Assembly: GCA_963711905.1 (NCBI GenBank)
Contig: CAVQFZ010000019.1
Location: 12,265-76,264 of the forward strand
Direction: 5' to 3'
DNA from: an uncultured Nitrospiraceae bacterium
GTDB lineage: Bacteria; Nitrospirota; Nitrospiria; Nitrospirales; Nitrospiraceae
Length of the DNA stretch: 64,000 nt
Each line of letters opens with the position of its first letter. The stretch's first letter is position 1. Positions 198 to 46,198 of the stretch are shown here, one piece after another. The position numbers and the translations under genes are program-made. Below the pieces are notes generated by a model that made no database searches, was not told where the DNA came from, and saw only the letters and a list, made by a program, of their open reading frames with translations.

Positions 198-3100
198 GTG
201 AAATCGATACGGCAGTCATCGGTTCGAATCGCGCTGATGGGGCGGTGCGCTCGCCCTTCTCGCGATCGTTGCGGCGGCACCACTCTGGTTGTGGCTGAAC
301 GCGACGACGCACGTGCGGGATTGGTTGACGGAGACAGTCGGCGCGGGCATCGGCAAGCGAGTCACGATCAGCGGGCCGGTGACCTGGACCTTGTCGCTTG
401 AACCGACGATTGTGCTCAAGCAGGTTGCAGTCGCCGAGAAATCGGACCATGGATTCTCAGACCTCGCCACCGCGGACACAGTCGAGCTGTCGATCGACTT
501 GCCGTCGTTGTCGCGCCGGTCGATCGCCATTCCCTCCCTCGCCGTCACCGATCTCAAGGTGGTACTCGATAAAAAAGTCCTTGAACGAGAAGCCGACGGG
601 GAACGAGAAGCCGACGGGCGATCAACGACCCCGGACGATGCCCCGAAGTCGGAACCGTCCGGCTTTGCGGTGCAGATCCACGCGATCCACCTCAGCCGCG
701 GGGCGGCGATATTCAGCGTTGCACCCTCTGCCGCCACGGAGCGGGTGACGCTCCATGAAGCGAAGCTGGACATGGCTCCCGATCGGCCCGTACGCCTTGT
801 CGCAAGCGGAGAGTTCAGGCGGGTGCCTGTTACGATCGACGCGACAGGCGGCAGGCTCTTGGATGTGACCAACGGCGGGCATGGATGGTGGCCGGTGGCC
901 ATGGAGGCCCACACGCCGGAGATGACGGTCTCAGTGGACGGCAACATCGGGCTTCCGATGGGGTCGCCTCTGGTGGATGTTCAGCTTACCGCCGCGGGCT
1001 CTCGCCTGGACAGGACCAACCAGTTACTGGCGGTGGACTGGCCTGGGCTTGGTCCTTACAGCCTTTCCGGTCGAGTGAAAGCCACCGGCGAGCAGGTGAC
1101 CATCAATGCTATGAAAGCGATGCTGGGCGCGAGCGATCTGGCGGCGGATGTCTCGCTCCGATACCACCAGGGGCGGCCGCGCCTCTCTGCCACCCTCGCC
1201 TCTCGGAAGATCGATCTGAACGATTTTTCAACCGGAAACGGCGTCTCGCAGGATGCCGATTTCATCGGCCATTTCATCGAATGGTTGAAGGCGTGGGATC
1301 TGGCCGTCGCGCTGACGTGCGATTCCGTCGTGCTCGGCGAGCGCACATTTGGGTCGTTACAGGTCCAGGCAAATTTGGAAGCGGGCTTGCTCCAGATCGG
1401 GGTGCCGGCTGCCGACTTCATGGGAACACGGATCGAGGGACGGACTGAGATCGATGTCCGCGAGGACGTTCCATCCCTTTCGCTCGCTGTAATCGGGCGG
1501 GGACTTGAACCGGCGATGCTCAAAACTGAATTGTCCGGTGCTCTGATCGGCATGTCTGATGCCGCGCTGAACGCAACGGCTCGTGGAAGGACATGGGAGG
1601 CGCTCCTCGGCTCGTTGGCCATCTCGCTTCGGACGGATCATTCGATCTTCTTGTTTCATGATCCCGTGTCGGGACGACCGATCGAGCTTTCGTTGGACAA
1701 AGGAATGGCGAGGTTGGACGCATCTGCCCCCGGGAAAATCGACCTGACCGGCCGGTATGGGCTGCGGCCATTCCGCATTCATGCGACGACCGGTTCTGTT
1801 TCCGCCTTGCTGGCCGATGAAGCCTGGCCGATCAACGCGGTCCTCCAAAGCGGTCAGGCCCGTTTGCTGGTGGACGCCACCGTGCCCCGGCCGCTGAATC
1901 ATGAGACCTGGGCTGTGCGTGTTCGAGCGCAAGGCCGCAGCCTCGATGAGTTCGCTTCCTCCCTGCCGGCCATCGGCCCTTTTCGCCTGTCGGGCCATGT
2001 GGCCGGCGATCGCGGCGGGTCCTGGAGCAACACGTTCTCGTGGCAGATCGGAGAAAGCGACGGAGCAGGACGGCTGGATGTGGCCACGGAGAGCGACCGC
2101 CTGGCCGTCACGGCCGACCTCACGTCGCGCCGCCTGCGCGCAGACGACTTCATGGATCGTACGGCGGGCCATGACGCATGGGGGAGCTCAATATCCGGCC
2201 GTGGAAGTCCGACGGCGCCGGTGATTCCGCCGTGGCTTGTGGCGGACATGAAATGGAAGATCGATCAACTCCATACCGGTCCGCTCCACCTACGCAGGTT
2301 TCTGCTCAAGCTCACGGTAGATCATGGCCGAATGGAAGCCTCTTCTTCGGCCATGCACCGGCATGGAGACATGAACGCGCTGCTGATGTTCGATACCAGC
2401 GAGGCCGTGCCTCGGCTGAAGATGCAGGCTCGTTCGCGACAGTTCGACTCTGGCGCGCTGCTTCGCGAAGCGAAGGTCACCGATCGTGTAACAGGAACGA
2501 CCGATCTCGCGCTCGATCTGACGAGCGAGGGGAACACAGCTGAGGAGCTGGTGGACCGCGTTGCATTCAACGTGACCGTGACACCGGGCGCCTTGCGTAT
2601 TGCCGGTCGCGGCGGCGAGGAGGTGGGACCGATTACCCTCTCGACGGCAAGCCTGTCGGGTCGAATCCACGAGCCTCTTCGCCTCATTGTCCAAGGCAAA
2701 ACGCGTGACCTTCCGCTCACGCTCACCGCCACGAGCGTTCCATTGAAACAAGTGCTCGATCTCCCGGCACACCTGCCCTGGACCCTGGCCCTGCGGGGAC
2801 CTGACATTGCTGTGGACGCGCAGGGGCGGGCAGGATTTCAAACCAGGGCAGGGACCGCGGATTTCCGCGTCAGTCTGAAGGGGGCTTCGCTGTCGCGTCT
2901 AGCCGCCCTGTTCGACCACGACCTGCCTGAGCTGGGTTCGTATGAGCTGTCGAGTGATGTAACCTACGCCGATCAGAGGGTGACCCTGTCCGATCTCCAA
3001 GTGCGAGTGGACAAAAGCGATGTCGCCGGGAGGATCGAGATCGCGTGGAGGGAATCTCGGCCACGGGTGACTGGGACCTTCTCGTCCAAATTGGTCGACC

Positions 3101-4230
3101 TGGAGATCCCGGAACGACCCGCTTCGAAAGCGGTCACGATGGAGAGCGGGGAGTCGTCGTCGAAAGCGACGACCGAGTCGGCCCCGGACGCGGTCGGCCC
3201 GAGAATCATCCCGGATTGGCGGCTGCCCGTTGAGTCCTTCCACTCAATGGAATTGGACTTACTCTGGACGATCAAACGGCTTTCGGCTCCGCCGCTGTTG
3301 GTGGAGGAGACCAACGCGATGCTGACCATGAAGGATGGCGTCTTGACCGTTGGTCCGCTGGCATGGGTCCTCGATGGGGCGATGAAGACCGGGCGATTCA
3401 CGATAGACGGCACCCGCAAGGTTCCGCATGTCGCGATTGAGATCATGGCAATCGCTCTTGATTACGGTGGACTCTTCAAAGCATTGAATATTACGGACAA
3501 GGTGGAAGGACACGCCGATATCTACCTGACCGCGGAAGGACAGGGTCAAGACTTTCGAGAGGTGATGGGGTCCGCGAACGGCCATCTTGAAATCGTCGCC
3601 GGGCAGGCGACATGGGAGAATCGGGTCATCCATCTCTGGGCATCCAATCTTATGACGGCCATGCTGTCGCAAGCGTGGCGCCGGGAGAGATCCTCCCACT
3701 ATAATTGCGGAGCCGCGTATATCGACATTCAGAATGGAGAAATGGAAACCGACGCGCTGTTGATCGACTCAAGCGACCACTCGGTCGCAGCTGCCGGGAC
3801 GTTGAACCTCGGCACGGAAGACCTGGACATGGTGGTGACGCCCAGTCCGAAAAGTTTGGCCCTTCTCAGCCTGGCCGTGCCGGTTCGTTTGACCGGACCC
3901 CTGGCCGCTCCCAAGACGTCGACGTCACCCACCTCGATCGCCGCCAGCAAAGCTTGGAAGGTTCTTGATATCGCGGTCCCCATCGGACTGACTTTGCAGG
4001 TGCCTCGTGTGATTCTTGGGGACAAGGCCACGGCGGCCGGCTCTCCGCTCGAGAATCCCTGTACGGCTGCCTTGCAAAGGGAAGGCAAAGGAACACTGAC
4101 GACTCGAAAAGTCGTCACCAGCGGGTTTGAATGGGTGGCGGATCTTTTGCGGAGAGGCGGATCGGCGGGAGCAAGATTGTTCCAACCTCGGCCCAGCGTA
4201 TCTGCGCGTGATGGAACAGGAGCTCCATGA
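198..4230 (+). CDS. AsmA-family (AsmA-like/TamB superfamily) envelope protein with N-terminal membrane anchor; one apparent +1 frameshift at the G4 run 239-242
   Basis: The 1313-aa ORF 289..4230 has AsmA-type repeats (LGASDLAADV, VDKSDVAGRI, DTDALLIDS..VAAAGTLNLGTEDLD). It lacks a TM anchor unless joined to GTG198 by removing one G at 239-242, which gives MKSIRQSSVRIALMGGALALLAIVAAAPLWLWLN. Confidence 0.85.
583..618 (+). repeat. Exact 18-bp tandem duplication (EREADG x2) in a linker of the AsmA-like gene
   Basis: gaacgagaagccgacggg occurs twice back to back, in frame. Confidence 0.9.
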
Positions 4231-4327: not shown

Positions 4328-5218
4328 ATGAGGGGATTGTACAGACTGTCGGCACAGCGGGCGTGGGGCTTTTGGATGTCTTTGACGACGGCGATGGTGG
4401 TCGTCTTGGTTCTCGGGACACCCTGCATGATTCTGGCTGAGGAACCGGCAAAAGAAGAGTTTCGCGACCGGCTCATGATCCGCGCCGGCTGGGCCTATGT
4501 CTTCGGAGTCGATGCAGACGTCACGGTTCGCGGCGACAGAACAGGGATTGGTGCGAGCGTTGACTTTGCAAAGACTTTGGGCGGAGACGACAGCACGAGT
4601 GCGCTCAGAGTCGACAGCCTCTATCGATTCAACGAGCGCCATGCGGTCGGCTTCTCGTGGTATCGGGTCGCGTTGGGGGGAGAAAATACGATTCTCGACC
4701 GGCAAATAGAGATCGGCGACAACACCATCAATGCCAACGCGAGCGTCCAGTCGAACCTGAACGTGAATCTCTATAGGTTTATTTACAACTGGTCGTTCTA
4801 TCGCAGCGACAAGGTGGAGCTGGCCTTGTCGCCCGGGTTCTATGTGGCGGCGACGAAATTCGATCTCACGGCGCAAGGGAACATCCTCCTGCCCAACAAC
4901 CAACCTTCCAGTTCGACGAGCGTGAACGAGCGTGTGACTCTTCCGCTGCCGTCGTTCGGGGTTCTTTTGAACTACAACATCATGCCACGCCTCCAGTTTC
5001 AGACCCGCACCGACTTTTTCTATCTCCAGCTGGGCGATTACGAGGGTGTGATGTTTGAGTTCTATGCCGGCCTTGAGTACCGGCTGTTCAAGCACTTTGC
5101 GGTCGGTGCCGCCTATGACCGGCTGTCCACGGGTCTGCAAAATACCAGCAGAGACGGGTTTGAGCTCGATGTCGCATACAATTTGGCCTACTTCTACGGC
5201 TCCCTCTACCTCTTCTGA
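4328..5218 (+). CDS. Outer-membrane beta-barrel protein of unknown function
   Basis: Signal peptide, alternating amphipathic strands and a C-terminal aromatic beta-signal (..YFYGSLYLF). ATG4328 chosen within ORF 4127..5218. Confidence 0.75.
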   Translation: MRGLYRLSAQRAWGFWMSLTTAMVVVLVLGTPCMILAEEPAKEEFRDRLMIRAGWAYVFGVDADVTVRGDRTGIGASVDFAKTLGGDDSTSALRVDSLYRFNERHAVGFSWYRVALGGENTILDRQIEIGDNTINANASVQSNLNVNLYRFIYNWSFYRSDKVELALSPGFYVAATKFDLTAQGNILLPNNQPSSSTSVNERVTLPLPSFGVLLNYNIMPRLQFQTRTDFFYLQLGDYEGVMFEFYAGLEYRLFKHFAVGAAYDRLSTGLQNTSRDGFELDVAYNLAYFYGSLYLF

Positions 5219-5872: not shown

Positions 5873-6355
5873 ATGAAGTCATTGACGACCATCACACTTA
5901 TGGCGGCGGTAAGTCTATTCCTTGTGGCCTCAGTCTCGCAGGCTCAAGGTACCTCGGATGCCAACCAGAAGATTCTGATGCAGAAGATCAAGGCCGACAA
6001 GAAGCTGCTGGTCGCAGAGAATATGGCGCTGACCGATGCGGAAAACAAGGTGTTCTGGCCTCAATACGACGGGTACCAGAAGGAATTGGATCAGATCAAT
6101 CATAGATTGATGAGTGTCATCAAAGAGTACGCCGATGCCTTCAATAAGGGACCGATTCCCAACGACACGTCGACGAAGCTCATGCATGACTTTCTGGCGA
6201 CGGAAGAAGCGGAGGTCGATCTGAAGAGCGCCTACGCGAAGAAAATTGCGGCCGTCATGTCGCCGGCAAAAGCGGCGCGTTACATCCAGATCGAGAACAA
6301 GATCCGGGCGCTGCTCAAGGCCGAAATGGCCCAGCAGATTCCGTTGATTTACTAG
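5873..6355 (+). CDS. Exported all-helical protein, Spy/CpxP-like (LTxxE..FWP.Y) family, paralog 1
   Basis: Signal peptide, motif IKADKKLLVAENMALTDAENKVFWPQYDGYQKEL, SD aaggag. Confidence 0.7.
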   Translation: MKSLTTITLMAAVSLFLVASVSQAQGTSDANQKILMQKIKADKKLLVAENMALTDAENKVFWPQYDGYQKELDQINHRLMSVIKEYADAFNKGPIPNDTSTKLMHDFLATEEAEVDLKSAYAKKIAAVMSPAKAARYIQIENKIRALLKAEMAQQIPLIY

Positions 6356-6410: not shown

Positions 6411-6962
6411 ATGCGATCAGCGCGACGAGTCAGTGCGGTTGTCATCGGCCTTTTCATCATGGCCGGATGCGCATCACAGGAGACAGTTTCGAAGCCCGCC
6501 GGCCCCCCTTCCAAGGCCGCGGCCGGATCGGCTTCTCACCAGGCCCCCGGATCGATGGCGAGCGAGCAGAATACTCAGATCTTGCTGGACAAGATCAAGG
6601 CCGACAAGAAACTGCTGGTGGCCTCCAACATGGAGCTGACTGATGCGGAATCCAAGGCATTCTGGCCTCTCTATGAGGACTATCAGGGCGAATTGATGCA
6701 GATCAATGAGCGGCTCGGAAAGACGATTACCGATTATGCGGATCTCATCAACAAGGGATCCGTTCCGGACGATCACGCCACGGCGCTGCTCGACGAGGCG
6801 CTGGCGGTCGAAAAGGCGGAAGTCGATCTGAAGCATGCCTATGCCGAGAAGGTTGCGACGGTGTTGCCGGCCACCAAGGCGGCCAGATACATGCAGATTG
6901 AAACAAAAATCAGGTCGCTCCTGAAGGGTGAGCTTGCCAAGCGGATCCCGCTGATTTATTAA
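6411..6962 (+). CDS. Lipoprotein, Spy/CpxP-like helical family, paralog 2
   Basis: Lipobox MAGC, a Pro/Ala linker, then the same domain as 5873..6355 (IKADKKLLVASNMELTDAESKAFWPLY...IPLIY). Confidence 0.7.
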   Translation: MRSARRVSAVVIGLFIMAGCASQETVSKPAGPPSKAAAGSASHQAPGSMASEQNTQILLDKIKADKKLLVASNMELTDAESKAFWPLYEDYQGELMQINERLGKTITDYADLINKGSVPDDHATALLDEALAVEKAEVDLKHAYAEKVATVLPATKAARYMQIETKIRSLLKGELAKRIPLIY

Positions 6963-7113: not shown

Positions 7114-7896
7114 ATGACCGCGTTCCGCATGATCGCGCCTCGTCTCGCCGCACGAGCAGCGATGCTTCGCCGCTTTCCACGCATCATCCATGACAACGGA
7201 TCTCACCCGATTCTTTCGGCGCTCCTTGCGGCGGCGATGCTGATGCTGTGTCCGGTATCCGGGACGGCCATGGACATCGGTGATGCTCAGGAGATGGTCG
7301 ACGATGCGCGGCTGATCGTCGCGCGAATGCTCGGTCATCCGGACATGAGCTGGTTGCGGAGGAATGTACAGAAAGCCAAGGCCATCTTCATTGCTCCGGC
7401 GATCGTTCGAATCGGATATTTGGCCGGAGTCGCCAAAGGAAAGGGTGTCTTGCTGGTGAAGGACGAACAGACGGGACAGTGGAGCGATCCGGCGTTCTTT
7501 AGCCTGATGGGAGCCGGCGTCGGCCTCCAAATAGGTATCGCTCGCACGGAAGTCGTCGCCCTCATCATGAGCCGCGACGAGGCCGACTCGTTCCTGCGAG
7601 GGCGGTTCGTCTTCGGGCCGGGCGCGGCCTTGGCGATCGGTCCCGTGGGCGCCTCAGCAGGAACGGCGACGACACCGACCCTGCGTCACGGCATCGTGTC
7701 CTTCGCCAAGGCTGGAGGCGCCTATGCCGGCGTGACCCTCCAAGGCGTCATCGCGATGTCCGATGAGTCCGCCAATGAGGCCTATTATGGCTCGGCGATG
7801 CGTTCGGAAGACATTCTTGCCCAACCACAAACTATCCGCCATTGGTATTCGACCCGCATACGCAATACCCTGGACAGAGCGGGAGAAGATCCATGA
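7114..7896 (+). CDS. Lipid-binding SYLF (Ysc84/DUF500) domain protein, paralog 1
   Basis: AKAIFIAP, GKGVLLVKD, WSDPAFFSLMGAGVGLQIG, SFAKAGGAYAGVTLQG, NEAYYG. Confidence 0.9.
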   Translation: MTAFRMIAPRLAARAAMLRRFPRIIHDNGSHPILSALLAAAMLMLCPVSGTAMDIGDAQEMVDDARLIVARMLGHPDMSWLRRNVQKAKAIFIAPAIVRIGYLAGVAKGKGVLLVKDEQTGQWSDPAFFSLMGAGVGLQIGIARTEVVALIMSRDEADSFLRGRFVFGPGAALAIGPVGASAGTATTPTLRHGIVSFAKAGGAYAGVTLQGVIAMSDESANEAYYGSAMRSEDILAQPQTIRHWYSTRIRNTLDRAGEDP

Positions 7897-9113
7897 CGAG
7901 ACTGCTCCGCATGATCACGCTCGTCACGCTGAGCCTTGTATCGCTTTCTTGCCAAACACCGAGCCCTCCGGATCAGCGATCCACCATCGCCGAGGTCTCG
8001 GGGCGGATGCCGGAGACTTTCAAAGTTCTCACCTACAACGCTTTGCATGGATTGCTGACCGGGACATTCGGGGTCGCTCCCGGAGAAACGCCGGAGCAGA
8101 ACGAAATCAGATTCCGTTTGCTGATCGCGCAACTGGCTCGAGTGCAGCCGGATATCGCCTTTCTGCAGGAAGTCAATCCTTTGCCCCGTCGAGCGGAGGC
8201 ATATGTCGGCGCCCTCGGGGAACTGGGACTCGCTTATGATGAGGTCCACCAGGTGGATGCGTGTGGAATCCGCGCCAGTGAGAAACGGGCCCTGTTCACC
8301 GAGTTGAACAACGGGCTGGTCATCCTGGCAAAGAAGCAACTCCGGCTCCGCAAACTCGCAGGGGTGAAACTGAGCGGTGACGCGGGCCAGTGTCGCACGG
8401 AGCGTGGCTTCCAACTCGGAGAGCTGCGGTATGCGCTCATTGCGGAGCTGACGATTCCTGGGAGCAGCCGTAGACATCTGGTCGCCACAACCCACCTGCA
8501 TTCGGGCTTTGAAACGGGCCGGTCATTTCTGGCCTATTTGGCCTCCCTGCATTCGCAAGGCCGTCTTTCCAAGTACCGGTCGTTGCGGTGGAGCGTCGAG
8601 CAGTCGCGGCTGCGGCGGATCGGGGAAATCGACCTGTTGAACCGCGCGTTGCAGAAGCTCAAGCGTGAGGAGGATTATGCGGGGATTCTCTTCGGCGGAG
8701 ACTTGAATTTCGAGTCGGATGACCCCGAATACGAGGAAATTCAGCTTCTCCGGTATGTCGATACGACTCGTGTGAACGGGCAGAATGCCGGTTTCTATAC
8801 CGCCGATCCCCTCCGGAACCGGCTGATACCGGACGCAATGACCTCGCCGCTTCCGTCTGTTCTGACGGATATGATCGGGGGCGAGGGCGACGACCTGCAG
8901 GCCGAGATCACTCGCGCGTACCGGACCGAGATGCAACGTCCAAGACAGATTGATTATTTGATCGAGGACTCCTTTCTCCCCGGCTACTGTCTGACACAAT
9001 CGATTTTCGGGCTGGAGACGGACGAGGCCGGACTCCCGGCGTCCGATCATTACGGTCTCTTGAACTCTTACGTCCTCTCGCCCGAGGTCTGCGCCCGGCC
9101 TGGAACTCTGTAA
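7893..9113 (+). CDS. Endonuclease/exonuclease/phosphatase (EEP) family lipoprotein
   Basis: Lipobox SLSC and motifs TYN, LQEV, THL, GDLN, IDY, SDH. The start overlaps the upstream stop (ATGA). Confidence 0.85.
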   Translation: MTRLLRMITLVTLSLVSLSCQTPSPPDQRSTIAEVSGRMPETFKVLTYNALHGLLTGTFGVAPGETPEQNEIRFRLLIAQLARVQPDIAFLQEVNPLPRRAEAYVGALGELGLAYDEVHQVDACGIRASEKRALFTELNNGLVILAKKQLRLRKLAGVKLSGDAGQCRTERGFQLGELRYALIAELTIPGSSRRHLVATTHLHSGFETGRSFLAYLASLHSQGRLSKYRSLRWSVEQSRLRRIGEIDLLNRALQKLKREEDYAGILFGGDLNFESDDPEYEEIQLLRYVDTTRVNGQNAGFYTADPLRNRLIPDAMTSPLPSVLTDMIGGEGDDLQAEITRAYRTEMQRPRQIDYLIEDSFLPGYCLTQSIFGLETDEAGLPASDHYGLLNSYVLSPEVCARPGTL

Positions 9114-9204: not shown

Positions 9205-11067
9205 ATGGCGACTGCCGGTCGCTGCATGGAGGCTGACATGATTTTCAAAGTGAGCATATGGAAACGGTGCCTGCGGACGCTGGCTCTCGGGTGCTGCGCG
9301 GTCGCCTCGATCACCATCTTGACGCAGGACCTACGGGCCGATACTCCTCAAGCTCCGCCGACGTTGCGGGAGTTGATTGAAAAGTCCAAGGATCAGCCCG
9401 ACGAGAGCTCGGCGGCAGATGTTCCCCGGCTGGGAATTCCGGAAGATCCCTTGGGACGGGGAGTTCCGCGAACAAGCGTGAAAGGATTTCTCATTGCAAC
9501 GAGGAATCACGACTATGTGCGGGCGGCCGAATACCTGGATCTTCGGAACCTTCCCTCCGGGATGACCGAGCAACAGGGGCCCGACCTGGCGCGTCAATTG
9601 AAGATTGTGTTGGATCGGGCGTTTTGGGTCGATCTCGATGTGCTCAGTTCAGAGCCGGAAGGGGACGACAAAGATAATCTGCTGACGGCGCGCGACCGCG
9701 TTGGGTTCGTGTCGACAGCCGATCGAAAGTACGAGATCCTCGTGCAACGGGTTCCGCGCGGGGATGGAGTCTATATCTGGAAATTTTCAGCCCTCACCGT
9801 CGCCGACATACCCGGTCTCTATGCCGATTTCGGATATGGCCCGCTGGAGCGGGTGTTCCCGCCCTGGTTGTTCGATACCTCCGTGTTCGGCATCCATCTC
9901 TGGACTTGGATCGTGTTCATCGTCTTAGGCATCCTTCTCTATCCAGTCGCCATGGTCATCGTCTCGTCGGCGTTGCACATCCTGCGCCGCTTCTATGCCG
10001 ACCTGGCGGATCAGATCGAGCGATTCTTCGGTGGACCGCTCCGGCTGCTGGTCTGGACGGTTCTGGGCCGGTATGGCGCCGAGCTGATCGGATCCTCCGT
10101 TGCAGCGAAAGCCATCATGCAAAGCCGTACGGTCCAGATGGTCGGCTTAGCCTGGATGCTTATGCGCCTCGTGGATTTTCTCGCGCAGCGCGCGAGCACA
10201 GATCTCGACCGCAAGGGTCTTGCCGGCGCCAGGGTGATCCTGACTCCTGTCGCCCGCCTACTCAAGCTGTTGGCCGTCACGGGCGCGACCCTCATGTGGC
10301 TGGATAACGTCGGATATAAAGTGACTACGTTATTGGCCGGCCTCAGCATCAGCGGCGTCGCCGTGGCCCTCGCGTCGCAAAAGAGTCTGGAAAATATCTT
10401 CGGGGCGCTGACGCTCTTTACCGCCCAACCGGTAAAGGTCGGAGATTTCTGCCGCTTCGGCGATAAGATGGGCACGGTCGAGGAGATCGGGCTGCGGGCG
10501 ACCCGCGTCCGCACCGTGGAACGCAGCGTCATCAGCATTGCCAATGCCGAATTCGCCGGCATGCATCTCGACAATCTCTCCAAGCGCGATCGGTTTCTTT
10601 TCAATCCCTGCCTGCAGCTTCGCTATGAGACCACGCCGGATCAGATTCGTTTCATGCTCATCGAGGTGCGGACGATGTTGTATGCGCATCCCAAAATGCT
10701 TTCCGATCCGCTCTGGGTGCGCTTCACGGGGTTCGGAGAGTACTCGCTGAATCTTCAGGTCTTCGCCTATATCGGGGTCACGGACTATAACGAATCGTTG
10801 GAAATTGCCGAAGACGTGAATTTTCGCATCATGGACATCGTGGAGGCGGCGGGATCCGACTTCGCCTTCCCCGCCCAAATCGAGTATTCGCTGCCGGGGA
10901 AGCCGTTTGACGAGAATCGTGCCAAGGCCATCGGGGCTCGCGTGAAAGAATGGAAGGACAACAGAGCGCTGTATCTGCCGAATGTGCCGAAAGAGAAGAT
11001 TGCGCACCTCAAGGCGTCATTGGATTATCCGCCTGCGGGATCGCCCGAGGCCATGGTGGGACGATGA
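9205..11067 (+). CDS. mscS: Mechanosensitive channel, MscS family, with periplasmic N-terminal domain
   Basis: TM helices, then LLAGLSISGVAVALASQKSLENIFG and GDFCRFGDKMGTVEEIGLRATRVRT. Confidence 0.9.
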   Translation: MATAGRCMEADMIFKVSIWKRCLRTLALGCCAVASITILTQDLRADTPQAPPTLRELIEKSKDQPDESSAADVPRLGIPEDPLGRGVPRTSVKGFLIATRNHDYVRAAEYLDLRNLPSGMTEQQGPDLARQLKIVLDRAFWVDLDVLSSEPEGDDKDNLLTARDRVGFVSTADRKYEILVQRVPRGDGVYIWKFSALTVADIPGLYADFGYGPLERVFPPWLFDTSVFGIHLWTWIVFIVLGILLYPVAMVIVSSALHILRRFYADLADQIERFFGGPLRLLVWTVLGRYGAELIGSSVAAKAIMQSRTVQMVGLAWMLMRLVDFLAQRASTDLDRKGLAGARVILTPVARLLKLLAVTGATLMWLDNVGYKVTTLLAGLSISGVAVALASQKSLENIFGALTLFTAQPVKVGDFCRFGDKMGTVEEIGLRATRVRTVERSVISIANAEFAGMHLDNLSKRDRFLFNPCLQLRYETTPDQIRFMLIEVRTMLYAHPKMLSDPLWVRFTGFGEYSLNLQVFAYIGVTDYNESLEIAEDVNFRIMDIVEAAGSDFAFPAQIEYSLPGKPFDENRAKAIGARVKEWKDNRALYLPNVPKEKIAHLKASLDYPPAGSPEAMVGR

Positions 11068-32215: not shown

Positions 32216-32689
32216 CTAGTAGGTCAACGGAATGGCCTTGGCCAACTCGAAGTTCACGATCGCCCGAACCTTGTTTTCGATCTGAATGTAGCGTGCCGTC
32301 TTGGACCAAGGCAGCACTTTGCTGATCTTATCGGCATAGGTGCGTTTCAGTTTCATTTCGGATTCCTGGGCCGACAGCGCATCGCCCATGAGCTTCTTCG
32401 CCGTGTTGTCCTCGACCGGACCCTTATTGAAGGCATCCGCATACTCTTTGATCGTGTTTCCCAGGGTCTGATTAATCTTGCCGAGTTCTTTTTGATATTC
32501 GTCGTACAGCGGCCAGAAGGCCTTCGCTTCCGCGTCGGTGAGATTCATGTTCGAAGAGACCAGCAACTTTTTATCGGCCTTCACCTTCTGCATCATGATT
32601 TCCATGTTGGTGTCGGTTGCGCTCTGCGCAAATGCCGGCGCGGCAATGAATACGGTAATGGCCAGAATGATCGGTGTGAATACTCGCAT
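32216..32689 (-). CDS. Exported Spy/CpxP-like helical protein, paralog 3
   Basis: MRVFTPIILAITVFIAAPAFA signal peptide; VKADKKLLVSSNMNLTDAEAKAFWPLYDEYQKEL. Confidence 0.75.
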   Translation of the reverse strand: MRVFTPIILAITVFIAAPAFAQSATDTNMEIMMQKVKADKKLLVSSNMNLTDAEAKAFWPLYDEYQKELGKINQTLGNTIKEYADAFNKGPVEDNTAKKLMGDALSAQESEMKLKRTYADKISKVLPWSKTARYIQIENKVRAIVNFELAKAIPLTY

Positions 32690-33821: not shown

Positions 33822-34027
33822 ATGACCTCCTCGAACAGTCATCTACAGACGATAGAGTTGCGACTCTAACCGAGCATCGTGAGATTTTTCAATACAAGAC
33901 GGAAGACAGTCGCCCTCCGTCACCCGCCATGCCATGTCGGCAACTGCGCCGAGACAGTCTTGAAAATCCTGCCGGCCTCGGATAGAGTCCCGCCGCCCCA
34001 TCCGGTGTTCCAGCGTATGACCAACGC

Positions 34028-35461
34028 ATGACAAGCGTTTCAACCAATCGCCTCGGTTTGGCTCTGCGAGCGACAGGACTGATTCTCTTGGTCGGCACAG
34101 CGAGCGCGTGGGGCGGCTCCATCGTGAACATCCCGAGACCGAACGAGAGACTCATGCCGCCCCCGCCGCCTCCCACCCTGGAGCGCTCGGTGGTCAACAT
34201 GGAGATCAGTCTCTCGGCAGAGGAATTGGCTCTCCTCGTGGATCAAACGTTTCCTCCCATCATCGCCCGTGAGGACGGGTGGAACGATCCCGCCCTGTTG
34301 CCGGGGAGGGATGATCTTCGCTTCCTCTACCGGCTGCATCGGGGCGGTTTTCAGTATCAAATGCAGCAGGACCGGCTCGAGCTGACGTTCAACGACATCC
34401 GATACAGAATCTGGGCCCGCCGGCCAGGAGGGGAGCAGGCCGAGGAGGGACGCTGCGGATATGGGGATGATCCGCCGAAACACATCCAGGTCGTCGCTCA
34501 TACGGCAGTCAGCTGGTCGGATGCCTGGCGGCTCAACCCGCAGACGAGCTTTGATCCTCCGGTCTTTGTCGACGCCTGTCGGCTCCAACCATTGAGCATC
34601 GACGCGACCCCGATGCTGCAGTCCGTCATGCAATCCAGGCTGTCGGCGTTGGCAGAAAAGATCGACCGGAAAATCGACGAGCGCAACGCGGGAAAACAGC
34701 GAGCAGCGGTCATCTGGACGAAGTTGCAAGAGCCGGTTGAACTGGCACCGAACCGATGGCTCGCACTCAACCCTGTCGACGCGCAGGTCGGCCCGGTCGG
34801 CTCCGACGGCGGCTTGCTGATCAAGACCTCGGTCAGCCTGATGATGGAGCCGAAGATCCGCGACGCCAAGCCGCCTGTCGGGGATGAGCCGCTTCCCTCG
34901 CTGAAGATGGCGCCGGCCACGATGGGCGGCTCTCGGTTGCTGTACCCGGTGTTTGTGGACTACCCGACAATCAACGGACGGCTCGAGCGCATGCTCGTCG
35001 GCCAGAACATCGACACGCCGCTTGGGGAGCCGATCACGATCACCGGGGTGGAGCTCTACGGCAGCGGGAACAAATTGATCGTGGCGATCAAGCTGAAGGG
35101 CGGGGTCAACGGCACGCTGTATTCGACTGGCGTTCCCGTATTCGACGAACCAAGTCGATCGATCAGATTCCGGAATCTAGATTTCACGCTGGATACCAAG
35201 AATATGCTGGTGCGCGGGGCGGAGCGTTTCTGGCGCGATACGCTGCTTGAGAAAATGGAGTCGGATATCTTCGTGGATCTGGCCGAGCCTCTGATGCTCA
35301 TGCAGGCCCGGCTCAACGAGGCGCTGACGCGGGAGCTGGCTCCCGGCGCCAGGCTGGAAGGAAAATTCACGAAACTGCTTCCCGCCGGCATCTATCCCGT
35401 CGCCGGAGGCGTTGAGGTGCAGATGATCGCTCAGGGCACCGTGCGGCTGATGCTGCAGTAA
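34028..35461 (+). CDS. DUF4403 family exported protein
   Basis: Signal peptide and LYGSGNKLIVAIKL.GGVNGTLYSTGVPVFD..SIRFRNLDFTLDTKNML. Confidence 0.75.
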   Translation: MTSVSTNRLGLALRATGLILLVGTASAWGGSIVNIPRPNERLMPPPPPPTLERSVVNMEISLSAEELALLVDQTFPPIIAREDGWNDPALLPGRDDLRFLYRLHRGGFQYQMQQDRLELTFNDIRYRIWARRPGGEQAEEGRCGYGDDPPKHIQVVAHTAVSWSDAWRLNPQTSFDPPVFVDACRLQPLSIDATPMLQSVMQSRLSALAEKIDRKIDERNAGKQRAAVIWTKLQEPVELAPNRWLALNPVDAQVGPVGSDGGLLIKTSVSLMMEPKIRDAKPPVGDEPLPSLKMAPATMGGSRLLYPVFVDYPTINGRLERMLVGQNIDTPLGEPITITGVELYGSGNKLIVAIKLKGGVNGTLYSTGVPVFDEPSRSIRFRNLDFTLDTKNMLVRGAERFWRDTLLEKMESDIFVDLAEPLMLMQARLNEALTRELAPGARLEGKFTKLLPAGIYPVAGGVEVQMIAQGTVRLMLQ

Positions 35462-35614: not shown

Positions 35615-35778
35615 CACCCGCCTGCGTAGGAAGCCACGGTTGTGAGGCCGTGGAGGTAATGAGCAGCGGGTGTCCTCCGAAGCCTTGGCGTAGGAGGACA
35701 TACTTCGGCGAGGTGTCGCCGAAGAACCACAGGAACCACGGCTCCCCGTCCTCCGCAGTAGTCTGCTACGGAGGATGG
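35615..35778 (+). repeat. Cluster of four stem-loops (REP-like units plus a multi-stem element) upstream of a small lipoprotein gene
   Basis: Hairpins at 35615-35672, 35671-35700 (tgtcctcc..ggaggaca), 35703-35724 (cttcggcga..tcgccgaag) and 35746-35778 (ccgtcctccg..cggaggatgg). Confidence 0.7.
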
Positions 35779-35813
35779 ATCAAGCCGTAGGGCTCCACAA
35801 CAGGAGGCTGACA

Positions 35814-36068
35814 ATGCGGATGTCTCGTCTGGGGATGTACACAATCTGTGGGTTCATGATGGTCATGGCCGGCTGCACGACCTACTACTATCGTGTCACC
35901 GACCCGGCCAGCGGGAAGGCCTACTACACAACCAACGTCGACGACAAAGGAAGGTCGGGAGCGGTCAAGATTAAGGACGACAAGAGCGGGAGCTCAGTGA
36001 CGCTCCAGTCTTCCGAAGTCAGAGAGATTTCAGAGGACGAGTACAAGGCGGCAACCGGCAAGAAGTGA
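35814..36068 (+). CDS. Small lipoprotein (84 aa)
   Basis: SD aggagg, lipobox MAGC, YYRVTDPASGKAYYT. Confidence 0.75.
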   Translation: MRMSRLGMYTICGFMMVMAGCTTYYYRVTDPASGKAYYTTNVDDKGRSGAVKIKDDKSGSSVTLQSSEVREISEDEYKAATGKK

Positions 36069-36322
36069 TGGGCGACGGTTCAGCCTCAGGCGGGGAGTCC
36101 TCACAAACTATGACGTTGAGTAGTGCGTTGCAAAGGCGACCGAAATCTGTTCGTCCGCAACACATTGCACCGATAGATCATATTTTGATATTTCCCGCGA
36201 GGGCGGCGATCGACCCACCATACACACATCTACAGAGAGGGAACCGAATGCACGCATCGGCCCGGTTGTCGGTGATAGTCCAAAGCCTTGCAGGGCTCGC
36301 AGCAGGCATCGGCTGCCAAACG

Positions 36323-37741
36323 ATGCGTAGAGTAGGTCATCTTCTCTTTGCCGCAGCGCTCTCCGTCGGCTTTCTAGGCTGTGAATACGTCCGTCCCACA
36401 CTGAACGCGCCGCTGGCCCAGTGGAACCCCCAGTACGGGTACCGCTACAATAATCTCGCGCCTCCGGAGGAAGGCAACTCCGACAGTCTGTTCGTGGTGG
36501 CGTCCTTTTCCGGGGGCGGCACGCGAGCCTCCGCCCTCGCGTTCGGGGCCTTGCGCGTCCTGGCCCGGCAACCCATTACTTGGGAAGGCAGGGACAAGCG
36601 ACTGCTCGACGAACTGGACGTGATTTATGCGCTGTCCGGCGGGACCTTCACCGGCGCCTACTACGCGCTCTTCGGCGAGCGGATTTTTCACGACTTCGAA
36701 TATCAGTTTCTCCGGAAAGACTGGGAGACCGAGCTGAGACACCGCATTTTGCGCTCGCCGAGTAACTGGTTCCGCCTCTGGTCCCCCTACTTCGGCCGCA
36801 TCCATATCATGTCAGAATTGCTGGACGAGGCGCTCTATGACGGCAAGACCTACGGCGATCTCCTGAACCAGAAGACCAGGCCTGGCTTGCTGATCCATGC
36901 GTCCGATATGGCCACGTTGTCGCGGTTTGAGTTTGGCCAGGTCCAGTTCGACATGTTGTGCTCCGACCTCAGTCAGCTGCCGATCGCTTATGCTTCGGCG
37001 GCCTCGGCGGCGCTACCCCTGGTGTTGAGCCCGATCACGCTCAAAAATTACGCGGGGAGCTGCGGATACCGGCCGCCGGATTGGCTGGAAACGGCCGCTG
37101 GGTCGTCCAAGCCCGTAGCGCGGCAGCGGGCGAAGGAGCTGCTGTCCTACCTGGATATCGAGAAACGCCCCCAGATCCATCTCCTTGACGGAGGCCTCTC
37201 GGACAACATGGCGCTCAGAGGTATCCTGGAGGGCTCCGCTGCGGCGGGGGGGTTGGACCGCGCGATCAAAAACGCCGGAGCCAAGAAGGTCAAGAAGCTG
37301 GTCTTCGTCTCGGTGAACGCTGAAACGAGTCCCGACGTGAGGGAGTACCGCAGCGATCACATCCCCAGCACCTCACGGGTGTTCAGCGCGTTGGTGGACA
37401 TCCCGATCAATCGCTACTCATCGGACACGCTGGCGCTTATGCGGATGGGCGTGGAGAAGTGGCACGAAAAGCTGAGCGCCCGTAAGCTCGCCTCGGCGGG
37501 CAGAGTACTCCGGGGAGGTCCGGAAGACGCCGGTGACAGCCCGTTTACGGAAGGCGCGGATGTGTACTTCATCGATGTGAGTTTGGGTGCCGTGGCCGAC
37601 GTGGAGGAGCAGCAGTATCTTATGAAAATTCCCACGACCCTGTACCTGACCGATGGACAGATCGACCGTCTGCTCTCCGCCGCGACGAAACTGATTCATC
37701 GCGACCCGGAATTTCAGCGGCTGATGCGCGATTTGCAGTAG
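36323..37741 (+). CDS. Patatin-like phospholipase lipoprotein
   Basis: Lipobox FLGC, FSGGGTRA, nucleophile region ALSGG and DGG motif (LLDGGLSDN). Confidence 0.88.
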   Translation: MRRVGHLLFAAALSVGFLGCEYVRPTLNAPLAQWNPQYGYRYNNLAPPEEGNSDSLFVVASFSGGGTRASALAFGALRVLARQPITWEGRDKRLLDELDVIYALSGGTFTGAYYALFGERIFHDFEYQFLRKDWETELRHRILRSPSNWFRLWSPYFGRIHIMSELLDEALYDGKTYGDLLNQKTRPGLLIHASDMATLSRFEFGQVQFDMLCSDLSQLPIAYASAASAALPLVLSPITLKNYAGSCGYRPPDWLETAAGSSKPVARQRAKELLSYLDIEKRPQIHLLDGGLSDNMALRGILEGSAAAGGLDRAIKNAGAKKVKKLVFVSVNAETSPDVREYRSDHIPSTSRVFSALVDIPINRYSSDTLALMRMGVEKWHEKLSARKLASAGRVLRGGPEDAGDSPFTEGADVYFIDVSLGAVADVEEQQYLMKIPTTLYLTDGQIDRLLSAATKLIHRDPEFQRLMRDLQ

Positions 37742-38198: not shown

Positions 38199-38792
38199 AT
38201 GAAGACATTTCGTGTGTCTGTACCAGCCGTTTTGTTAATGGCAGCCATGGCATGTGCGAGTTCCAGTGCTTTGGCAGCCGAGGAGAAGGAGAAGGATTTT
38301 TCGTCCACGCTCGACAAATTCAAATCTTCAGAGCAGGTGAAACCGTTTTTTGAGAATGCGTATGGATATGCGGTCTTTCCCCTCATCGGGAAAGGGGGTC
38401 TGGGGGTCGGCGGTGCATATGGGCAGGGACAAGTCTACCGCGAAGGGAAGGTGACCGGCAAAACAAGGCTGATCAAGCTCTCATTCGGCTTTCAGGCTGG
38501 CGGCCAGGGGTTCTGTGAAATCATCTTCTTCAAAGATCAGCGTGCCTATGATGAGTTTACGAGTGGGGACTTTGCGTTCGACGCCACAGCCTCAGCAGTC
38601 GCCATCACCGCCGGGGCGCAAGCCACGACCGGGACAACAGGAGGATCAGCGGGAATGAGTGCGGGACCGAAATCCGGGGCACAAGTCGGCCTCGGCTACA
38701 CCAAGGGAATGGCTGTCTTTACCCAAGCGATCGGCGGTCTGATGTACGAGGCGGCCATTGGAGGTCAAAAGTTCAGCTTTGAACCCCTCTAA
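38199..38792 (+). CDS. YSC84-related short SYLF protein, paralog 5
   Basis: FENAYGYAVFPLIGKGGLGVGGAYGQG..SFGFQAGGQ..GGLMYEAAIGGQKFSF. Confidence 0.88.
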   Translation: MKTFRVSVPAVLLMAAMACASSSALAAEEKEKDFSSTLDKFKSSEQVKPFFENAYGYAVFPLIGKGGLGVGGAYGQGQVYREGKVTGKTRLIKLSFGFQAGGQGFCEIIFFKDQRAYDEFTSGDFAFDATASAVAITAGAQATTGTTGGSAGMSAGPKSGAQVGLGYTKGMAVFTQAIGGLMYEAAIGGQKFSFEPL

Positions 38793-43875: not shown

Positions 43876-44457
43876 ATGAGGACATTTCGTGTATCTGTAC
43901 CAGCCGTTTTGTTCATGGCCGCCATGGCCTGGGTGAGTTCCAGTACGTTGGCAGCCGAGGATTTTTCGTCCACGATCGACAAATTCAAATCTTCAGAACA
44001 AGTGAAACCGTTTTTTGAGAATGCGTACGGCTATGCCGTCTTTCCCCTCATCGGGAAAGGGGGGCTGGGAGTCGGTGGCGCATACGGGCAGGGACAAGTC
44101 TACCGCGACGGAAAGGTTACGGGTAAATCCAAGCTGGTCAAGCTCTCCTTTGGCTTTCAGGCTGGCGGCCAGGGGTTCTGTGAAATCATCTTCTTTAAAG
44201 ATCAGCGTGCCTATGATGAGTTTACGAGTGGGGACTTTGCGTTCGACGCCACAGCCTCAGCAGTCGCCATCACCGCCGGGGCGCAAGCCACGACCGGGAC
44301 AACAGGAGGATCCGCGGGAGCCAGTGCCGGACCGAAATCCGGTGCACAACTCGCAGCAGACTACCGCAAAGGAATGGCTGTCTTTACCCAAGCGATCGGT
44401 GGTCTGATGTACGAGGCGGCCATTGGAGGTCAAAAGTTCAGCTTTGAACCCCTCTAA
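43876..44457 (+). CDS. YSC84-related short SYLF protein, paralog 6 (near-identical duplicate of 38199..38792)
   Basis: Long identical DNA stretches shared with 38199..38792, including downstream non-coding DNA. Confidence 0.9.
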   Translation: MRTFRVSVPAVLFMAAMAWVSSSTLAAEDFSSTIDKFKSSEQVKPFFENAYGYAVFPLIGKGGLGVGGAYGQGQVYRDGKVTGKSKLVKLSFGFQAGGQGFCEIIFFKDQRAYDEFTSGDFAFDATASAVAITAGAQATTGTTGGSAGASAGPKSGAQLAADYRKGMAVFTQAIGGLMYEAAIGGQKFSFEPL

Positions 44458-44551
44458 ACAACCGGGATTATGTCATGGAGGTGGGCGAGGTGCAGTCGCG
44501 ATAACCTCGCCCAAGCCTCTCATGCATCAGCACATGAAATTCTTTCATAAT

Positions 44552-44692: not shown

Positions 44693-46198
44693 TTATTTGG
44701 TCTTTCCCTCGTACGGCTCCGAGACGGCAATCTTGATGACGTGGCCCTCGCGCAACGGTTCGTAGTCGGTCACATTGTTGGCGACCGCGACCTGTTCGGG
44801 CTTCCAGACCGTATTGGACCGAGCCGCGATGGTCCGCACGCTTTCCCCTTGCCGCGCTTTCACCAACCGGATGCGATCTTCGCTGATGGCGGCCCGTTCT
44901 TTCGCCGACAGAGGCCGGAAGCTCTGTGCCACTTGCCGAAAGACAGGCTCTACGTCTTGAAATTCTCTCGTGGGCGCGAAAGCGGCGATCTGGTAGACCA
45001 TTCCGCCATGCGCGATCCAGGTCACATCCACGGTGACTTTAGATTCGGCAAACCTGGTCGTGGCGGCGGGCAGCCCGTTCACTTTCGTCGGATGGGTCTT
45101 GGTCTCGAGCTTCGTCTTGCTGGACTTTTCCAGGGCCTTCGCGCCGTCCAGCGGATCGTCACCCTCGGCCACCGCCTGGAACACCACCGCTTTGTGTCCG
45201 CCCTTCGGCGCCGAGGCAACTTTCGTGGGTGTATTCTCGACGTGCCAGCCATCCGGGAACTGCATGAAGAGATTCAGATCAGGATGACGAAATGTATTTT
45301 CCTTGACGATGCCGTTTGCGGCCCGTTGTCCCGCTACCATCCCATCGAGCCTTGCCAGGAACACTTCCTGTGAGGCAGAGATCGGCTCACGGGCCGCTCG
45401 TTTGATCTGCATCGCATGTTTGTTGGTGTTCTTCACCCGGTCGGGCGTCGCAGGATGCGAATCGAAGAAGCTGGTCCGGCGCGGCCCATCGCTCAAGAGT
45501 TCTTGCTCCCTGCCCAAAGTATTCAAAAACACGGAGAGTCCCTCCGGGTCCCAGCCGGCTTTGGCCGCCATCTCCTGCCCGATTTCATCCGCCTCGGACT
45601 CCTGAGAACGGCTGTAGGGGGAGAACACGAGGCTCTGCGCGAAATTGCCGACGCCCCCGATGAGGTTTCCTACAAGCGGACTGACGATCCCGGTCAGACC
45701 CGATGTAATTCCGAACACGACCGCGAAAGGACCTTGTTTGGAAACTCGTTGGACTGTATGCCTTGCCGCCACATGCCCGATCTCATGGCCGACCACGCCG
45801 GCCAGTTCATCTTCCGCCGTGACCAGCGCCAGCAAGCCACGGGTGACATAGACGTAGCCGCCGGGAAGCGCAAACGCATTGGGTTCCGGCATGTCCGCCA
45901 CGTAGAAGTGATGTGTCACGTCCTGCCGGGGGGACTCCTTGGCCAGCCTCTGACCCAGTACGTTGAGATAGTCTGTCAGCGCCGGATCATCCACTAAGCC
46001 CATCTGCTGTTCGACCTTTTCAGCCTCCTCTGCGCCGATCTTCTTCTCCTGCTCCACCGTCATCAAGGACAGTTCGGGTCTGTGACTCACGGGGTTCACC
46101 GAACAAGCCGCTGTGCCGAGGAGCATGGGTAACAGAAACGAGAAACCGAGCAGAGCCCTTCGAACGGGAACCGGAATCATCGACAAGGTCTTCACCAT
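44693..46198 (-). CDS. M48 family (BepA/YfgC-like) metalloprotease lipoprotein
   Basis: Lipobox TAAC, PNAFALPGG, HEIGH, SRSQESEAD and SHP. Confidence 0.9.
   Translation of the reverse strand: MVKTLSMIPVPVRRALLGFSFLLPMLLGTAACSVNPVSHRPELSLMTVEQEKKIGAEEAEKVEQQMGLVDDPALTDYLNVLGQRLAKESPRQDVTHHFYVADMPEPNAFALPGGYVYVTRGLLALVTAEDELAGVVGHEIGHVAARHTVQRVSKQGPFAVVFGITSGLTGIVSPLVGNLIGGVGNFAQSLVFSPYSRSQESEADEIGQEMAAKAGWDPEGLSVFLNTLGREQELLSDGPRRTSFFDSHPATPDRVKNTNKHAMQIKRAAREPISASQEVFLARLDGMVAGQRAANGIVKENTFRHPDLNLFMQFPDGWHVENTPTKVASAPKGGHKAVVFQAVAEGDDPLDGAKALEKSSKTKLETKTHPTKVNGLPAATTRFAESKVTVDVTWIAHGGMVYQIAAFAPTREFQDVEPVFRQVAQSFRPLSAKERAAISEDRIRLVKARQGESVRTIAARSNTVWKPEQVAVANNVTDYEPLREGHVIKIAVSEPYEGKTK

Follow-up and report, generated by a model that had tools for sequence, protein, structure and literature searches.

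The stretch of DNA analyzed in this study, hereafter the window, comprises 64,000 nucleotides from an uncultured Nitrospiraceae bacterium (C19:12265-76264, where C19 is contig CAVQFZ010000019.1 of a 4.35-Mb assembly in 27 contigs). It contains genes for SYLF, DUF4403, AsmA-like and FadL-family proteins together with a mechanosensitive channel, stress-related genes and cytoplasmic enzymes, and many of these families were found together again in relatives. We tentatively favor the possibility that the cluster is a Nitrospiraceae-specific, plastic island for stress survival and envelope maintenance with a lipid-handling arm, and not a dedicated lipid-scavenging system. The window would hold the larger part of this island. 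The component families are known or partly known; judged from genomic context in one bacterial family, their association appears to be new, and no description of this neighborhood was found in the literature searched.

Open reading frames were listed with a third-position G+C filter and families were assigned by Pfam scans, in which Ysc84 (PF04366; curated cut-off 25.1 bits) represents SYLF. The survey of relatives was anchored on the SYLF alignment and covered 77 loci from species-representative genomes; the surroundings of DUF4403 homologs in public assemblies were examined as well. Locus counts for the Nitrospiraceae refer to 28 SYLF-anchored loci of at least 15 kb each, and whole-genome searches took in 121 Nitrospiraceae genomes. 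In addition, 100 kb of G168, a relative genome with an 87% identical DUF4403 (locus L021), was compared. Working names are used for U160, an unannotated secreted helical family; for unk363, the barrel gene at 4340-5218; for OMP361, a 361-amino-acid protein encoded to the left of the window; and for AtpG2, the second-type ATP-synthase gamma gene, also to the left.

Recurrent co-localization in the Nitrospiraceae

A first-pass annotation, made from the sequence of positions 198-46198, had seen in this region a set of lipid-related families, and Pfam scans confirmed every family that it named. FGE, sulfatase, Gly-zipper, LpoB-like and YgdI-like lipoprotein genes and three copies of U160 were also found there. 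The description of the products as nearly all exported holds for most of them, which carry Sec or lipoprotein signals at their N-termini, but not for GH63, GH13 and the universal stress protein (Usp), which have no signal peptide.

All SYLF matches of the genome lie inside the window, and tblastn of the genome located U160, patatin, window-type AsmA, short Lnb_N, lipase-like, GH13, LpoB-like and unk363 genes in the window only. The clustering exceeds chance. A mis-binned contig was considered and rejected: C19 ranks highest in GC and tetranucleotide distance, yet only marginally, and its genes are duplicated elsewhere no more often (7 of 87) than those of other contigs. The window has a G+C content of ~59%, and the names of its homologs place it in Nitrospira. 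As for signs of an integrative element, the window contains no tRNA genes and its base composition does not shift clearly within the island, and integrases were not searched for.

Co-localization was found to extend beyond close relatives to many Nitrospiraceae genera, with a heavily shuffled gene order, and it is this recurrence within the family that makes a functional reading of the cluster worthwhile. The genes that recur around SYLF, in shuffled orders, include those of one particular DUF4403 subfamily and those for a large MscS channel, patatin, the AsmA-like protein, FadL, sulfatase/FGE and EEP. Further recurring partners had escaped the first-pass annotation: U160, barrel-like genes, Usp, GH63-GH13, the second atpG, and a PAS/GAF kinase with NarL-type regulators. 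The 28 Nitrospiraceae SYLF loci hold a median of 4 and a maximum of 10 other island families, with U160 in 13, GH13 in 12, GH63 and DUF4403 in 9 each, and MscS in 7. SYLF itself occurs in 62 of the 121 family genomes and in few same-genus genomes. Where a genome has several copies they are clustered, for example seven in 123 kb, six in 69 kb and five in 9 kb.

G168 holds the whole window set, rearranged, over ~70 kb. Its order at L021 is GH13<-GH63<-SYLF<-MscS<-U160<-Usp, followed by a divergent DUF4403->small lipoprotein->patatin->short SYLFs and, further on, M48; it also includes AsmA-unk363, EEP-SYLF1, the lipase-like/Lnb_N pair and a second MscS-patatin pair. In L023-L025, where DUF4403 is 44-45% identical, one arrangement is Usp-SYLF-U160-U160-DUF4403 with MscS<-patatin<-unk363 nearby, and another is U160-short SYLF-DUF4403-MscS-unk363-unk363-MltF with patatin nearby. 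Across the lineages with 44-56% identical DUF4403, U160, SYLF and DUF4403 stay together in differing orders, accompanied by MscS, patatin and unk363 except in L022. A common layout is SYLF-(U160)-GlyZip-DUF4403-U160, then two response regulators and a histidine kinase on the opposite strand, then GH63-GH13-SYLF-OMP361, and then AtpG2.

The linkage is selective. Only the high-scoring, island-type DUF4403 subfamily is linked: of 12 cases with a SYLF gene on the same contig, 11 have the two genes no more than 10 kb apart. The second DUF4403 of this genome, on C24, belongs to another subtype, and such subtypes are never SYLF-linked. None of the island's envelope families was found in 19 loci of the phylum anchored on other DUF4403 types, and the neighborhoods of three distant DUF4403 homologs from other lineages likewise contained none of them. 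Beyond SYLF itself, almost nothing is shared with the island by the 18 loci, each 15 kb or longer, that come from Alphaproteobacteria, NC10, Terriglobia and 'delta proteobacterium' metagenome-assembled genomes (MAGs). The exception is FadL-SYLF, the only sub-module seen outside the Nitrospiraceae, which occurs in two 'delta proteobacterium' MAGs, with MscS and a Gly-zipper gene in L077 and with a sulfatase in L083. The linkage is confined to one bacterial family, the Nitrospiraceae.

That these families stay together across many genera suggests, from gene neighborhoods, a shared role in envelope integrity under stress. The most constant partners are not lipid-related: U160, the large MscS, Usp, the cytoplasmic GH63-GH13, the second atpG, acetate kinase, and the PAS/GAF kinase with NarL-type regulators. 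With MscS, Spy/CpxP-like proteins, Usp, compatible-solute-type glycosidases, a gamma subunit, acetate kinase and kinase-regulators among them, the constant partners point beyond lipids. The earlier proposal of an undescribed envelope system for lipid scavenging or transfer survives in part. A linkage limited to close relatives would have refuted it, and the linkage was found to reach many genera. A lipid-handling arm is plausible and its linkage recurrent, but the most constant partners are non-lipid, the linkage is that of one family, and the FadL and AsmA genes are defective here.

Lipid-related proteins and their outer-membrane partners

The window encodes four long SYLF proteins, namely SYLF1 (7114..7896, + strand; Ysc84 E-value 4.4e-25), a divergent form whose gene overlaps the EEP gene start; SYLF2 (14758..15558, +; 1.1e-28); SYLF3 (16728..17438, +; 2.5e-29); and SYLF4 (31240..31956, -; 1.4e-32). 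These score 88-113 bits. Two short SYLF-like proteins, 5 (38199..38792, +) and 6 (43876..44457, +), reach 21.2 and 21.5 bits, under the cut-off, and align with the SYLF Gly-rich motifs; the six paralogs noticed at first are thus four above the Pfam cut-off and two, at ~21 bits, that are supported by this alignment. SYLF4 matches a solved bacterial SYLF structure, PDB 7OFN (BPSL1445, a Burkholderia lipoprotein), with an E-value of 1.3e-07. The SYLF proteins carry ordinary Sec signals and are 60-90% conserved between genera. The SYLF1-EEP pair is retained in G168, L112 and L114.

The secreted DUF4403 protein (34028..35461, +) matches PF14356 over profile positions 2-424 of 425 (5.7e-71) and belongs to the island-specific subfamily. 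The first-pass annotation had mentioned a proposal that DUF4403 is TULIP-like; the proposal exists (Levine 2019), and the structural model agrees with it. The AlphaFold2 model (pLDDT 81.5) has LBP (4m4d) and BPI (1ewf) as its Foldseek matches, with E-values of 3-4e-9 and a probability of 1.0, and OrfX, SPLUNC1 and YceB rank below them. In this model, DUF4403 adopts a pseudo-dimeric, BPI-like fold of two domains. The arrangement of the two domains differs from that in BPI/LBP, since the global TM-scores are low (~0.25).

Genes for FadL and for probable outer-membrane barrels stand next to these genes. The most frequent SYLF/DUF4403 neighbor is OMP361 (25 loci, usually immediately downstream), which in C19 lies left of the window (C19:3997-5082, -). 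It is secreted, ends in ...RYMFPSF, belongs to no Pfam family and is a probable outer-membrane barrel. The FadL-family gene (15688..16533, +; Pfam Toluene_X, profile positions 3-215 of 421) encodes 281 amino acids in this assembly and has an apparent internal in-frame deletion. Compared with the 450-amino-acid ortholog of G168, it has lost ~170 internal residues and retains residues 1-225 and roughly the last 58, so it would not form the complete FadL/TodX barrel of 14 strands and ~420-450 residues. Full-length FadL sits between two SYLF genes in G168, and SYLF->FadL adjacency was found in 6 loci.

The AsmA-like gene (198..4230, +) encodes a protein of ~1340 amino acids with an AsmA match (PF05170, 4.6e-23) at residues 866-1154 and a weak YhdP match. 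Its signal-anchor, starting from the GTG at 198, is out of frame with the body, which is open from 238 and has its first listed start at 289; the anchor, VKSIRQSSVRIAL / WGGALALLAIVAAAPLWLWL, is spread over two frames in this assembly. The G168 ortholog, 81% identical, is continuous and has its anchor in frame with the body, and the break may be a true frameshift or an assembly error. Directly 3' of this gene lies unk363 (4340..5218, +), a probable DUF481-like outer-membrane beta-barrel ending in ...YGSLYLF, with a weak OMP_b-brl match. The AsmA-like protein with an outer-membrane barrel of the first description thus exists as two genes, a separate barrel gene and an AsmA-like gene with a disrupted 5' end. 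The window copy of unk363 has no DUF481 match in Pfam; its orthologs in L025, 69-74% identical, score 25.9 bits in one case (cut-off 21.1) and 18.7 bits in the other. The AsmA-barrel adjacency is kept only in close relatives and L047. Window-type AsmA was found in 7 of the 121 family genomes, within the cluster wherever contigs permit a check, and it adjoins MscS, DUF4403 or SYLF in four genera.

Candidate lipid-processing enzymes are present as well. The patatin-like lipoprotein (36065..37741, +; Pfam Patatin 1.3e-11) has the GGGTR oxyanion motif and DGG, with ALSGG as its serine motif where GxSxG is expected; its gene recurs with MscS and unk363 in relatives. The lipase-like alpha/beta-hydrolase lipoprotein (23439..25874, -) matches Abhydrolase_6 and weakly PGAP1, has a GHSQG motif and an LAAC lipobox, and its true start is probably near 25290. 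It is divergently paired with a DUF4105/Lnb_N gene (25694..26578, +; PF13387, 1.5e-38), and the pair is kept in G168, L069 and L071. DUF4105 was brought forward at first as the domain of the Bacteroides lipoprotein N-acyltransferase Lnb. The domain is present, with the His- and Cys-containing motifs AHTIASW and HNCTT, but the gene is not the conserved Lnb type: it is a short, rarely occurring paralog that accompanies the lipase-like gene, and its product has at most 294 amino acids and no transmembrane helix predicted by a Kyte-Doolittle scan. Long-type Lnb_N matches (open frames of ~650-700 amino acids, E ~1e-58) were found in 107 of the 121 genomes, nearly always singly and usually unlinked to SYLF. 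This genome has its long Lnb-type gene at C1:120348-120861, divided between two frames. The long Lnb-type DUF4105 protein is a candidate lipoprotein N-acyltransferase of the Nitrospiraceae.

These proteins could constitute a dedicated pathway that takes up or transfers lipids, as the first-pass annotation proposed, or other hydrophobic compounds; we regard this as unlikely. FadL, OMP361 and the DUF481-like barrels would admit or release the compounds, SYLF and DUF4403 would carry them across the periplasm, the AsmA-like protein would bridge the membranes, and patatin, the lipase-like protein, EEP and sulfatase would process them. The adjacency of SYLF to FadL and, in many loci, of SYLF and DUF4403 to OMP361 is in keeping with such a pathway, as are the FadL-SYLF pairs of the two 'delta proteobacterium' MAGs, one of them with a sulfatase, and the predicted BPI/LBP-like fold of DUF4403. 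The bacterial SYLF proteins BefA and BPSL1445 bind or perturb membranes, and AsmA proteins have been proposed as lipid bridges (Levine 2019). However, half of the constant partners (MscS, U160, Usp, GH63-GH13, AtpG2 and the kinase-regulator set) are non-lipid, this genome has defective FadL and AsmA-like genes, its DUF4105 gene in the window is of a type other than Lnb, and the linkage is absent in other phyla. The cluster also contains no inner-membrane transporter or fatty-acid activation gene. A broader version would make SYLF and DUF4403 soluble periplasmic lipid carriers that dock on OMP361, FadL and DUF481-like barrels and form, with the AsmA-like bridge and the patatin lipase, a new modular pathway for moving or remodeling outer-membrane lipids; it would be switched on by a DosRS-like kinase-regulator set, together with an alternative ATP-synthase gamma subunit, at stress or dormancy. 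This version we likewise hold to be improbable.

The adjacency of SYLF to U160, in either order in 8 loci, brings in a further explanation. U160a (5873..6355, +; AlphaFold2 pLDDT 79) is predicted to be a secreted four-helix protein of the CpxP/Spy/CnrX type. Paralog alignment included two more copies in the window, the three genes being ~69% alike: U160b (6411..6962, +), a lipoprotein form with the N-terminal lipobox IMAGC, and U160c (32216..32689, -). The best structural match is the periplasmic sensor CnrX, with a Foldseek probability of 1.0 and yet an E-value of 0.12; the Pfam Metal_resist match (E 0.018) is under the cut-off, and a single LTDAE motif is present. The family has ~3500 homologs and no Pfam entry, and JGI names some of them Spy/CpxP. 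These matches point weakly but consistently to a CpxP/Spy/CnrX-like periplasmic helical family. Searches of PDB sequences with U160, EEP and patatin returned no matches. If the SYLF proteins were membrane-permeabilizing effectors like BefA of Aeromonas, which permeabilizes bacterial membranes, the adjacent periplasmic U160 proteins could be their immunity partners, and the island would be a conflict system; its tandem paralog arrays and patchy distribution would suit this. Such a system is highly improbable, considering that no secretion-system or toxin-delivery genes lie nearby, that the SYLF proteins have ordinary Sec signals and are conserved between genera instead of hypervariable, and that many SYLF genes have no adjacent U160.

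Stress-related partners, plasticity and remaining genes

The stress flavor of the island comes from MscS, tandem Usp, GH63, which is a cytoplasmic enzyme of the mannosylglycerate-hydrolase type, and the second atpG that accompanies the island. The large MscS-type channel (9205..11067, +; PF00924 1.6e-14, PF21082 6.9e-08) has 620 amino acids and, judged from its hydrophobic segments, a periplasmic N-terminal domain; PF21088 reaches 20.2 bits (E 6e-4), under its cut-off of 23.1. Its gene recurs beside U160, SYLF, DUF4403 and AsmA in relatives. The tandem Usp gene (32949..33842, -; two Usp stretches, 4.7e-33) is divergent from the DUF4403 gene and lies beside SYLF, U160 and DUF4403 in L021, L023 and L075. 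The GH63/MGH1-like glycoside hydrolase (11463..14207, +; Pfam) and the GH13 (alpha-amylase family) enzyme (29711..31180, -; Pfam 2.7e-10, weak NCBIfam matches) are both cytoplasmic, and GH63->GH13 adjacency was found in 9 loci.

The island reaches at least 12 kb beyond the left end of the window. This part of C19 contains acetate kinase, a class-I aldolase, the ATP-synthase gamma gene, an SBF-family transporter, OMP361, an RND efflux system and another Gly-zipper gene. AtpG2 (C19:2043-2939, ~10 kb left of the window) is of a divergent second gamma type. Island-bearing genomes have one gamma copy that is 79-90% identical to AtpG2 and, elsewhere, a housekeeping copy that is ~65% identical; in the sampled same-genus genomes, the housekeeping type alone was found. 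AtpG2 lies beside SYLF or DUF4403 in most genomes where contigs permit a check. Among the SYLF-anchored loci, AtpG2 was counted in 13, acetate kinase in 7 and the RND pump in 7.

The favored, if tentative, reading of a stress-survival and envelope-maintenance island would be organized as follows. Its envelope arm would consist of several SYLF paralogs and the BPI/LBP-like DUF4403, all secreted and with presumed lipid-binding folds, typically encoded just upstream of FadL or OMP361. To this arm would also belong the DUF481-like barrel, U160, the large MscS-type channel, the patatin lipoprotein, the AsmA-like bridge, and the small Gly-zipper and YgdI-like lipoproteins. Tandem Usp, GH63-GH13, AtpG2, acetate kinase and aldolase would make up a cytoplasmic arm. 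The set would be completed by a PAS/GAF kinase and NarL-type regulators, whose genes often lie in the middle of the island. We infer that these genes may be regulated together as a single module for stress survival, which osmotic change, desiccation or a shortage of energy would trigger. The envelope arm would then maintain or remodel outer-membrane lipids and proteins, its lipid substrates being putative, while the channel and the cytoplasmic enzymes would adjust solutes and energy.

Local duplication accounts for part of the SYLF clustering. By self-blastn, SYLF2 and SYLF3 are 83% identical over 829 bp of DNA, and SYLF5 and SYLF6 are 85% identical over 880 bp, with a repeat at 43683-44532. 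The GH63-GH13-SYLF-FadL order is retained in relatives; here, the ancestral GH13 is replaced by a deletion scar (14220..14765, +) that includes, at 14299, a 296-bp piece that is a 92% copy of 28792-29085. The AsmA frame, the FadL deletion, this scar and a sulfatase remnant all appear to be forms of decay, and the decay of several components could mean weak selection. Intact copies of the broken components exist in relatives. In a Nitrospira metagenome contig (L022:1081-2771), the island MscS gene is broken into several frames, a further sign of decay or assembly errors in this region.

The duplication and decay weigh against the favored reading, and so do several other results. All loci come from one bacterial family, and shared descent inflates the counts; gene order varies to a degree that leaves few operon-like pairs; and 22 upstream regions, compared with random window segments, showed no excess of exact 7- or 8-mers and so gave no sign of a shared motif. 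The stress reading also leans on analogies with E. coli and mycobacteria, and the literature searched yielded nothing usable on gene expression of Nitrospira under stress. It may be that the genes have no common function and that the region is a plasticity zone. Lineage-specific genes for exported products would be duplicated, reshuffled and lost to decay there, and shared descent and local duplication, not selection, would have kept them close. This explanation, which is possible though on the unlikely side, agrees with the recent duplicates (83-92% DNA identity) and deletion scar, the pseudogene-like defects, the patchy presence of SYLF, the strongly shuffled order and the lack of a shared promoter motif. 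It is at odds with the fact that the DUF4403 subtype, MscS, patatin, the AsmA type, AtpG2 and GH63-GH13 remain only tens of kb apart in several genera at protein identities of 40-60%, while the flanking genes do not, and that one DUF4403 subfamily alone is linked. The 84-93% conservation of AtpG2 argues for purifying selection.

The endonuclease/exonuclease/phosphatase-fold (EEP) lipoprotein (7842..9113, +; Exo_endo_phos 2.6e-09) has the lipobox LVSLSC. An FGE-type enzyme (17579-18790, +), a secreted 178-amino-acid protein, unk178 (18889-19425, +), a Gly-zipper protein (19487-19957, +) and an 811-amino-acid sulfatase (20258-22693, +) follow SYLF3, all but unk178 assigned by Pfam; unk178-GlyZip-FGE and FadL-sulfatase groupings recur near SYLF. 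The probable remnant of a sulfatase C-terminus (26585..26977, +) has a weak Sulfatase_C match and is 77% identical to the end of the full L025 sulfatase. The LpoB/DUF4136-like lipoprotein (28282..29070, +; weak Pfam matches, lipobox VLSGC) is encoded next to SYLF, in the order LpoB-like->SYLF, in 4 loci. The small YgdI/YgdR-like lipoprotein (35775..36068, +) has the lipobox VMAGC and an NCBIfam lipo_YgdI_YgdR match (E 3e-4) under the cut-off, and the end of its gene overlaps the patatin open reading frame by 4 nucleotides. Pfam scans also identified a Cys-rich outer-membrane barrel (39060-40070, -), an OmpA-like lipoprotein (41019-41873, -) and an MltF-like lytic transglycosylase (41938-43683, -).

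The right island edge is marked by an M48 metalloprotease lipoprotein (44693..46198, -; Pfam 1.7e-33), whose gene also lies near SYLF in G168 and in SYLF-anchored loci. Genes to the right of 46.2 kb (the UvrA paralog and its neighbors) never occur near SYLF in the loci of relatives and serve as a control. The segment 47198-53673, between M48 and the kinase-regulator genes, holds a UvrA-like ATPase gene and two Pfam-less open reading frames and drops to 0.51 G+C at 50-52 kb; it looks like an insertion into the island, because its genes are never near SYLF in relatives. Beyond it, a PAS/GAF-HisKA_3 kinase and three NarL-type response regulators (53705..58649, +; Pfam) may be a regulator of the island. 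Their membership is uncertain; at 10 or more loci, a paralogous set of one histidine kinase and two response regulators sits within the island. They form part of a dense signaling run (53705-63688) with two further kinases and an Hpt-receiver protein.

Comparison with known systems

The movement of lipids between the membranes of diderm bacteria is still being worked out. AsmA-like bridges, TULIP-like proteins and bacterial SYLF proteins are all poorly characterized, and the three are not known to be linked. A neighborhood in which they stand beside a mechanosensitive channel and stress genes, throughout a nitrite-oxidizing family of key nitrifiers, offers definite candidates that can be tested together; U160 and OMP361, two unannotated families, are its most faithful partners. 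The island would also point to the means by which Nitrospira in soils and treatment plants withstands drying, osmotic shifts or a shortage of energy.

In E. coli, AsmA-like bridges with an outer-membrane partner include TamB-TamA, YhdP and YdbH-YnbE, whose presumed role is outer-membrane lipid homeostasis. Similar to these, the window has a protein of ~1300 amino acids with a signal-anchor, an AsmA C-terminal domain and an adjoining gene for an outer-membrane barrel. The barrel, however, is small and DUF481-like instead of an Omp85 protein, and the gene is rare and placed amid SYLF, DUF4403, MscS and patatin. The SYLF proteins resemble BPSL1445, Aeromonas BefA and the structurally similar Brucella EipA, which are membrane- or lipid-interacting, in being secreted proteins or lipoproteins in which the SYLF domain makes up almost the whole protein. 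Whereas the known proteins are encoded by single genes without such a neighborhood, four long and two short paralogs occur here within 37 kb, each beside a different exported protein.

Among TULIP proteins (BPI, LBP and CETP; in bacteria, YceB and OrfX/P47), DUF4403 is similar in being periplasmic and in its predicted two-domain, BPI/LBP-like form. It differs in its domain arrangement and in that one of its subfamilies is tied to the island. The Bacteroides lipoprotein N-acyltransferase Lnb, also a DUF4105 protein, has 398 amino acids and five transmembrane helices (PNAS 2024). The window protein shares with it the DUF4105, or permuted NlpC-P60, domain with motifs that contain His and Cys. It is distinguished by its short length, its lack of a predicted transmembrane helix and its status as a rare paralog, with the conserved long Lnb-type gene located elsewhere in the genome.

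Envelope and metabolic genes are combined in stress regulons such as the RpoS/osmotic set of E. coli (OsmB, YgdI, YdiY, LoiP and MscS) and the mycobacterial DosRS dormancy regulon. The Gly-zipper and YgdI-like proteins, DUF481-like barrel, M48 protease, MscS, tandem Usp, and GAF/PAS HisKA_3 kinase with NarL-type regulators of the island may be likened to members of these regulons. Expression defines those regulons, whose genes are dispersed over the chromosome, whereas the island is defined by physical clustering in one family.

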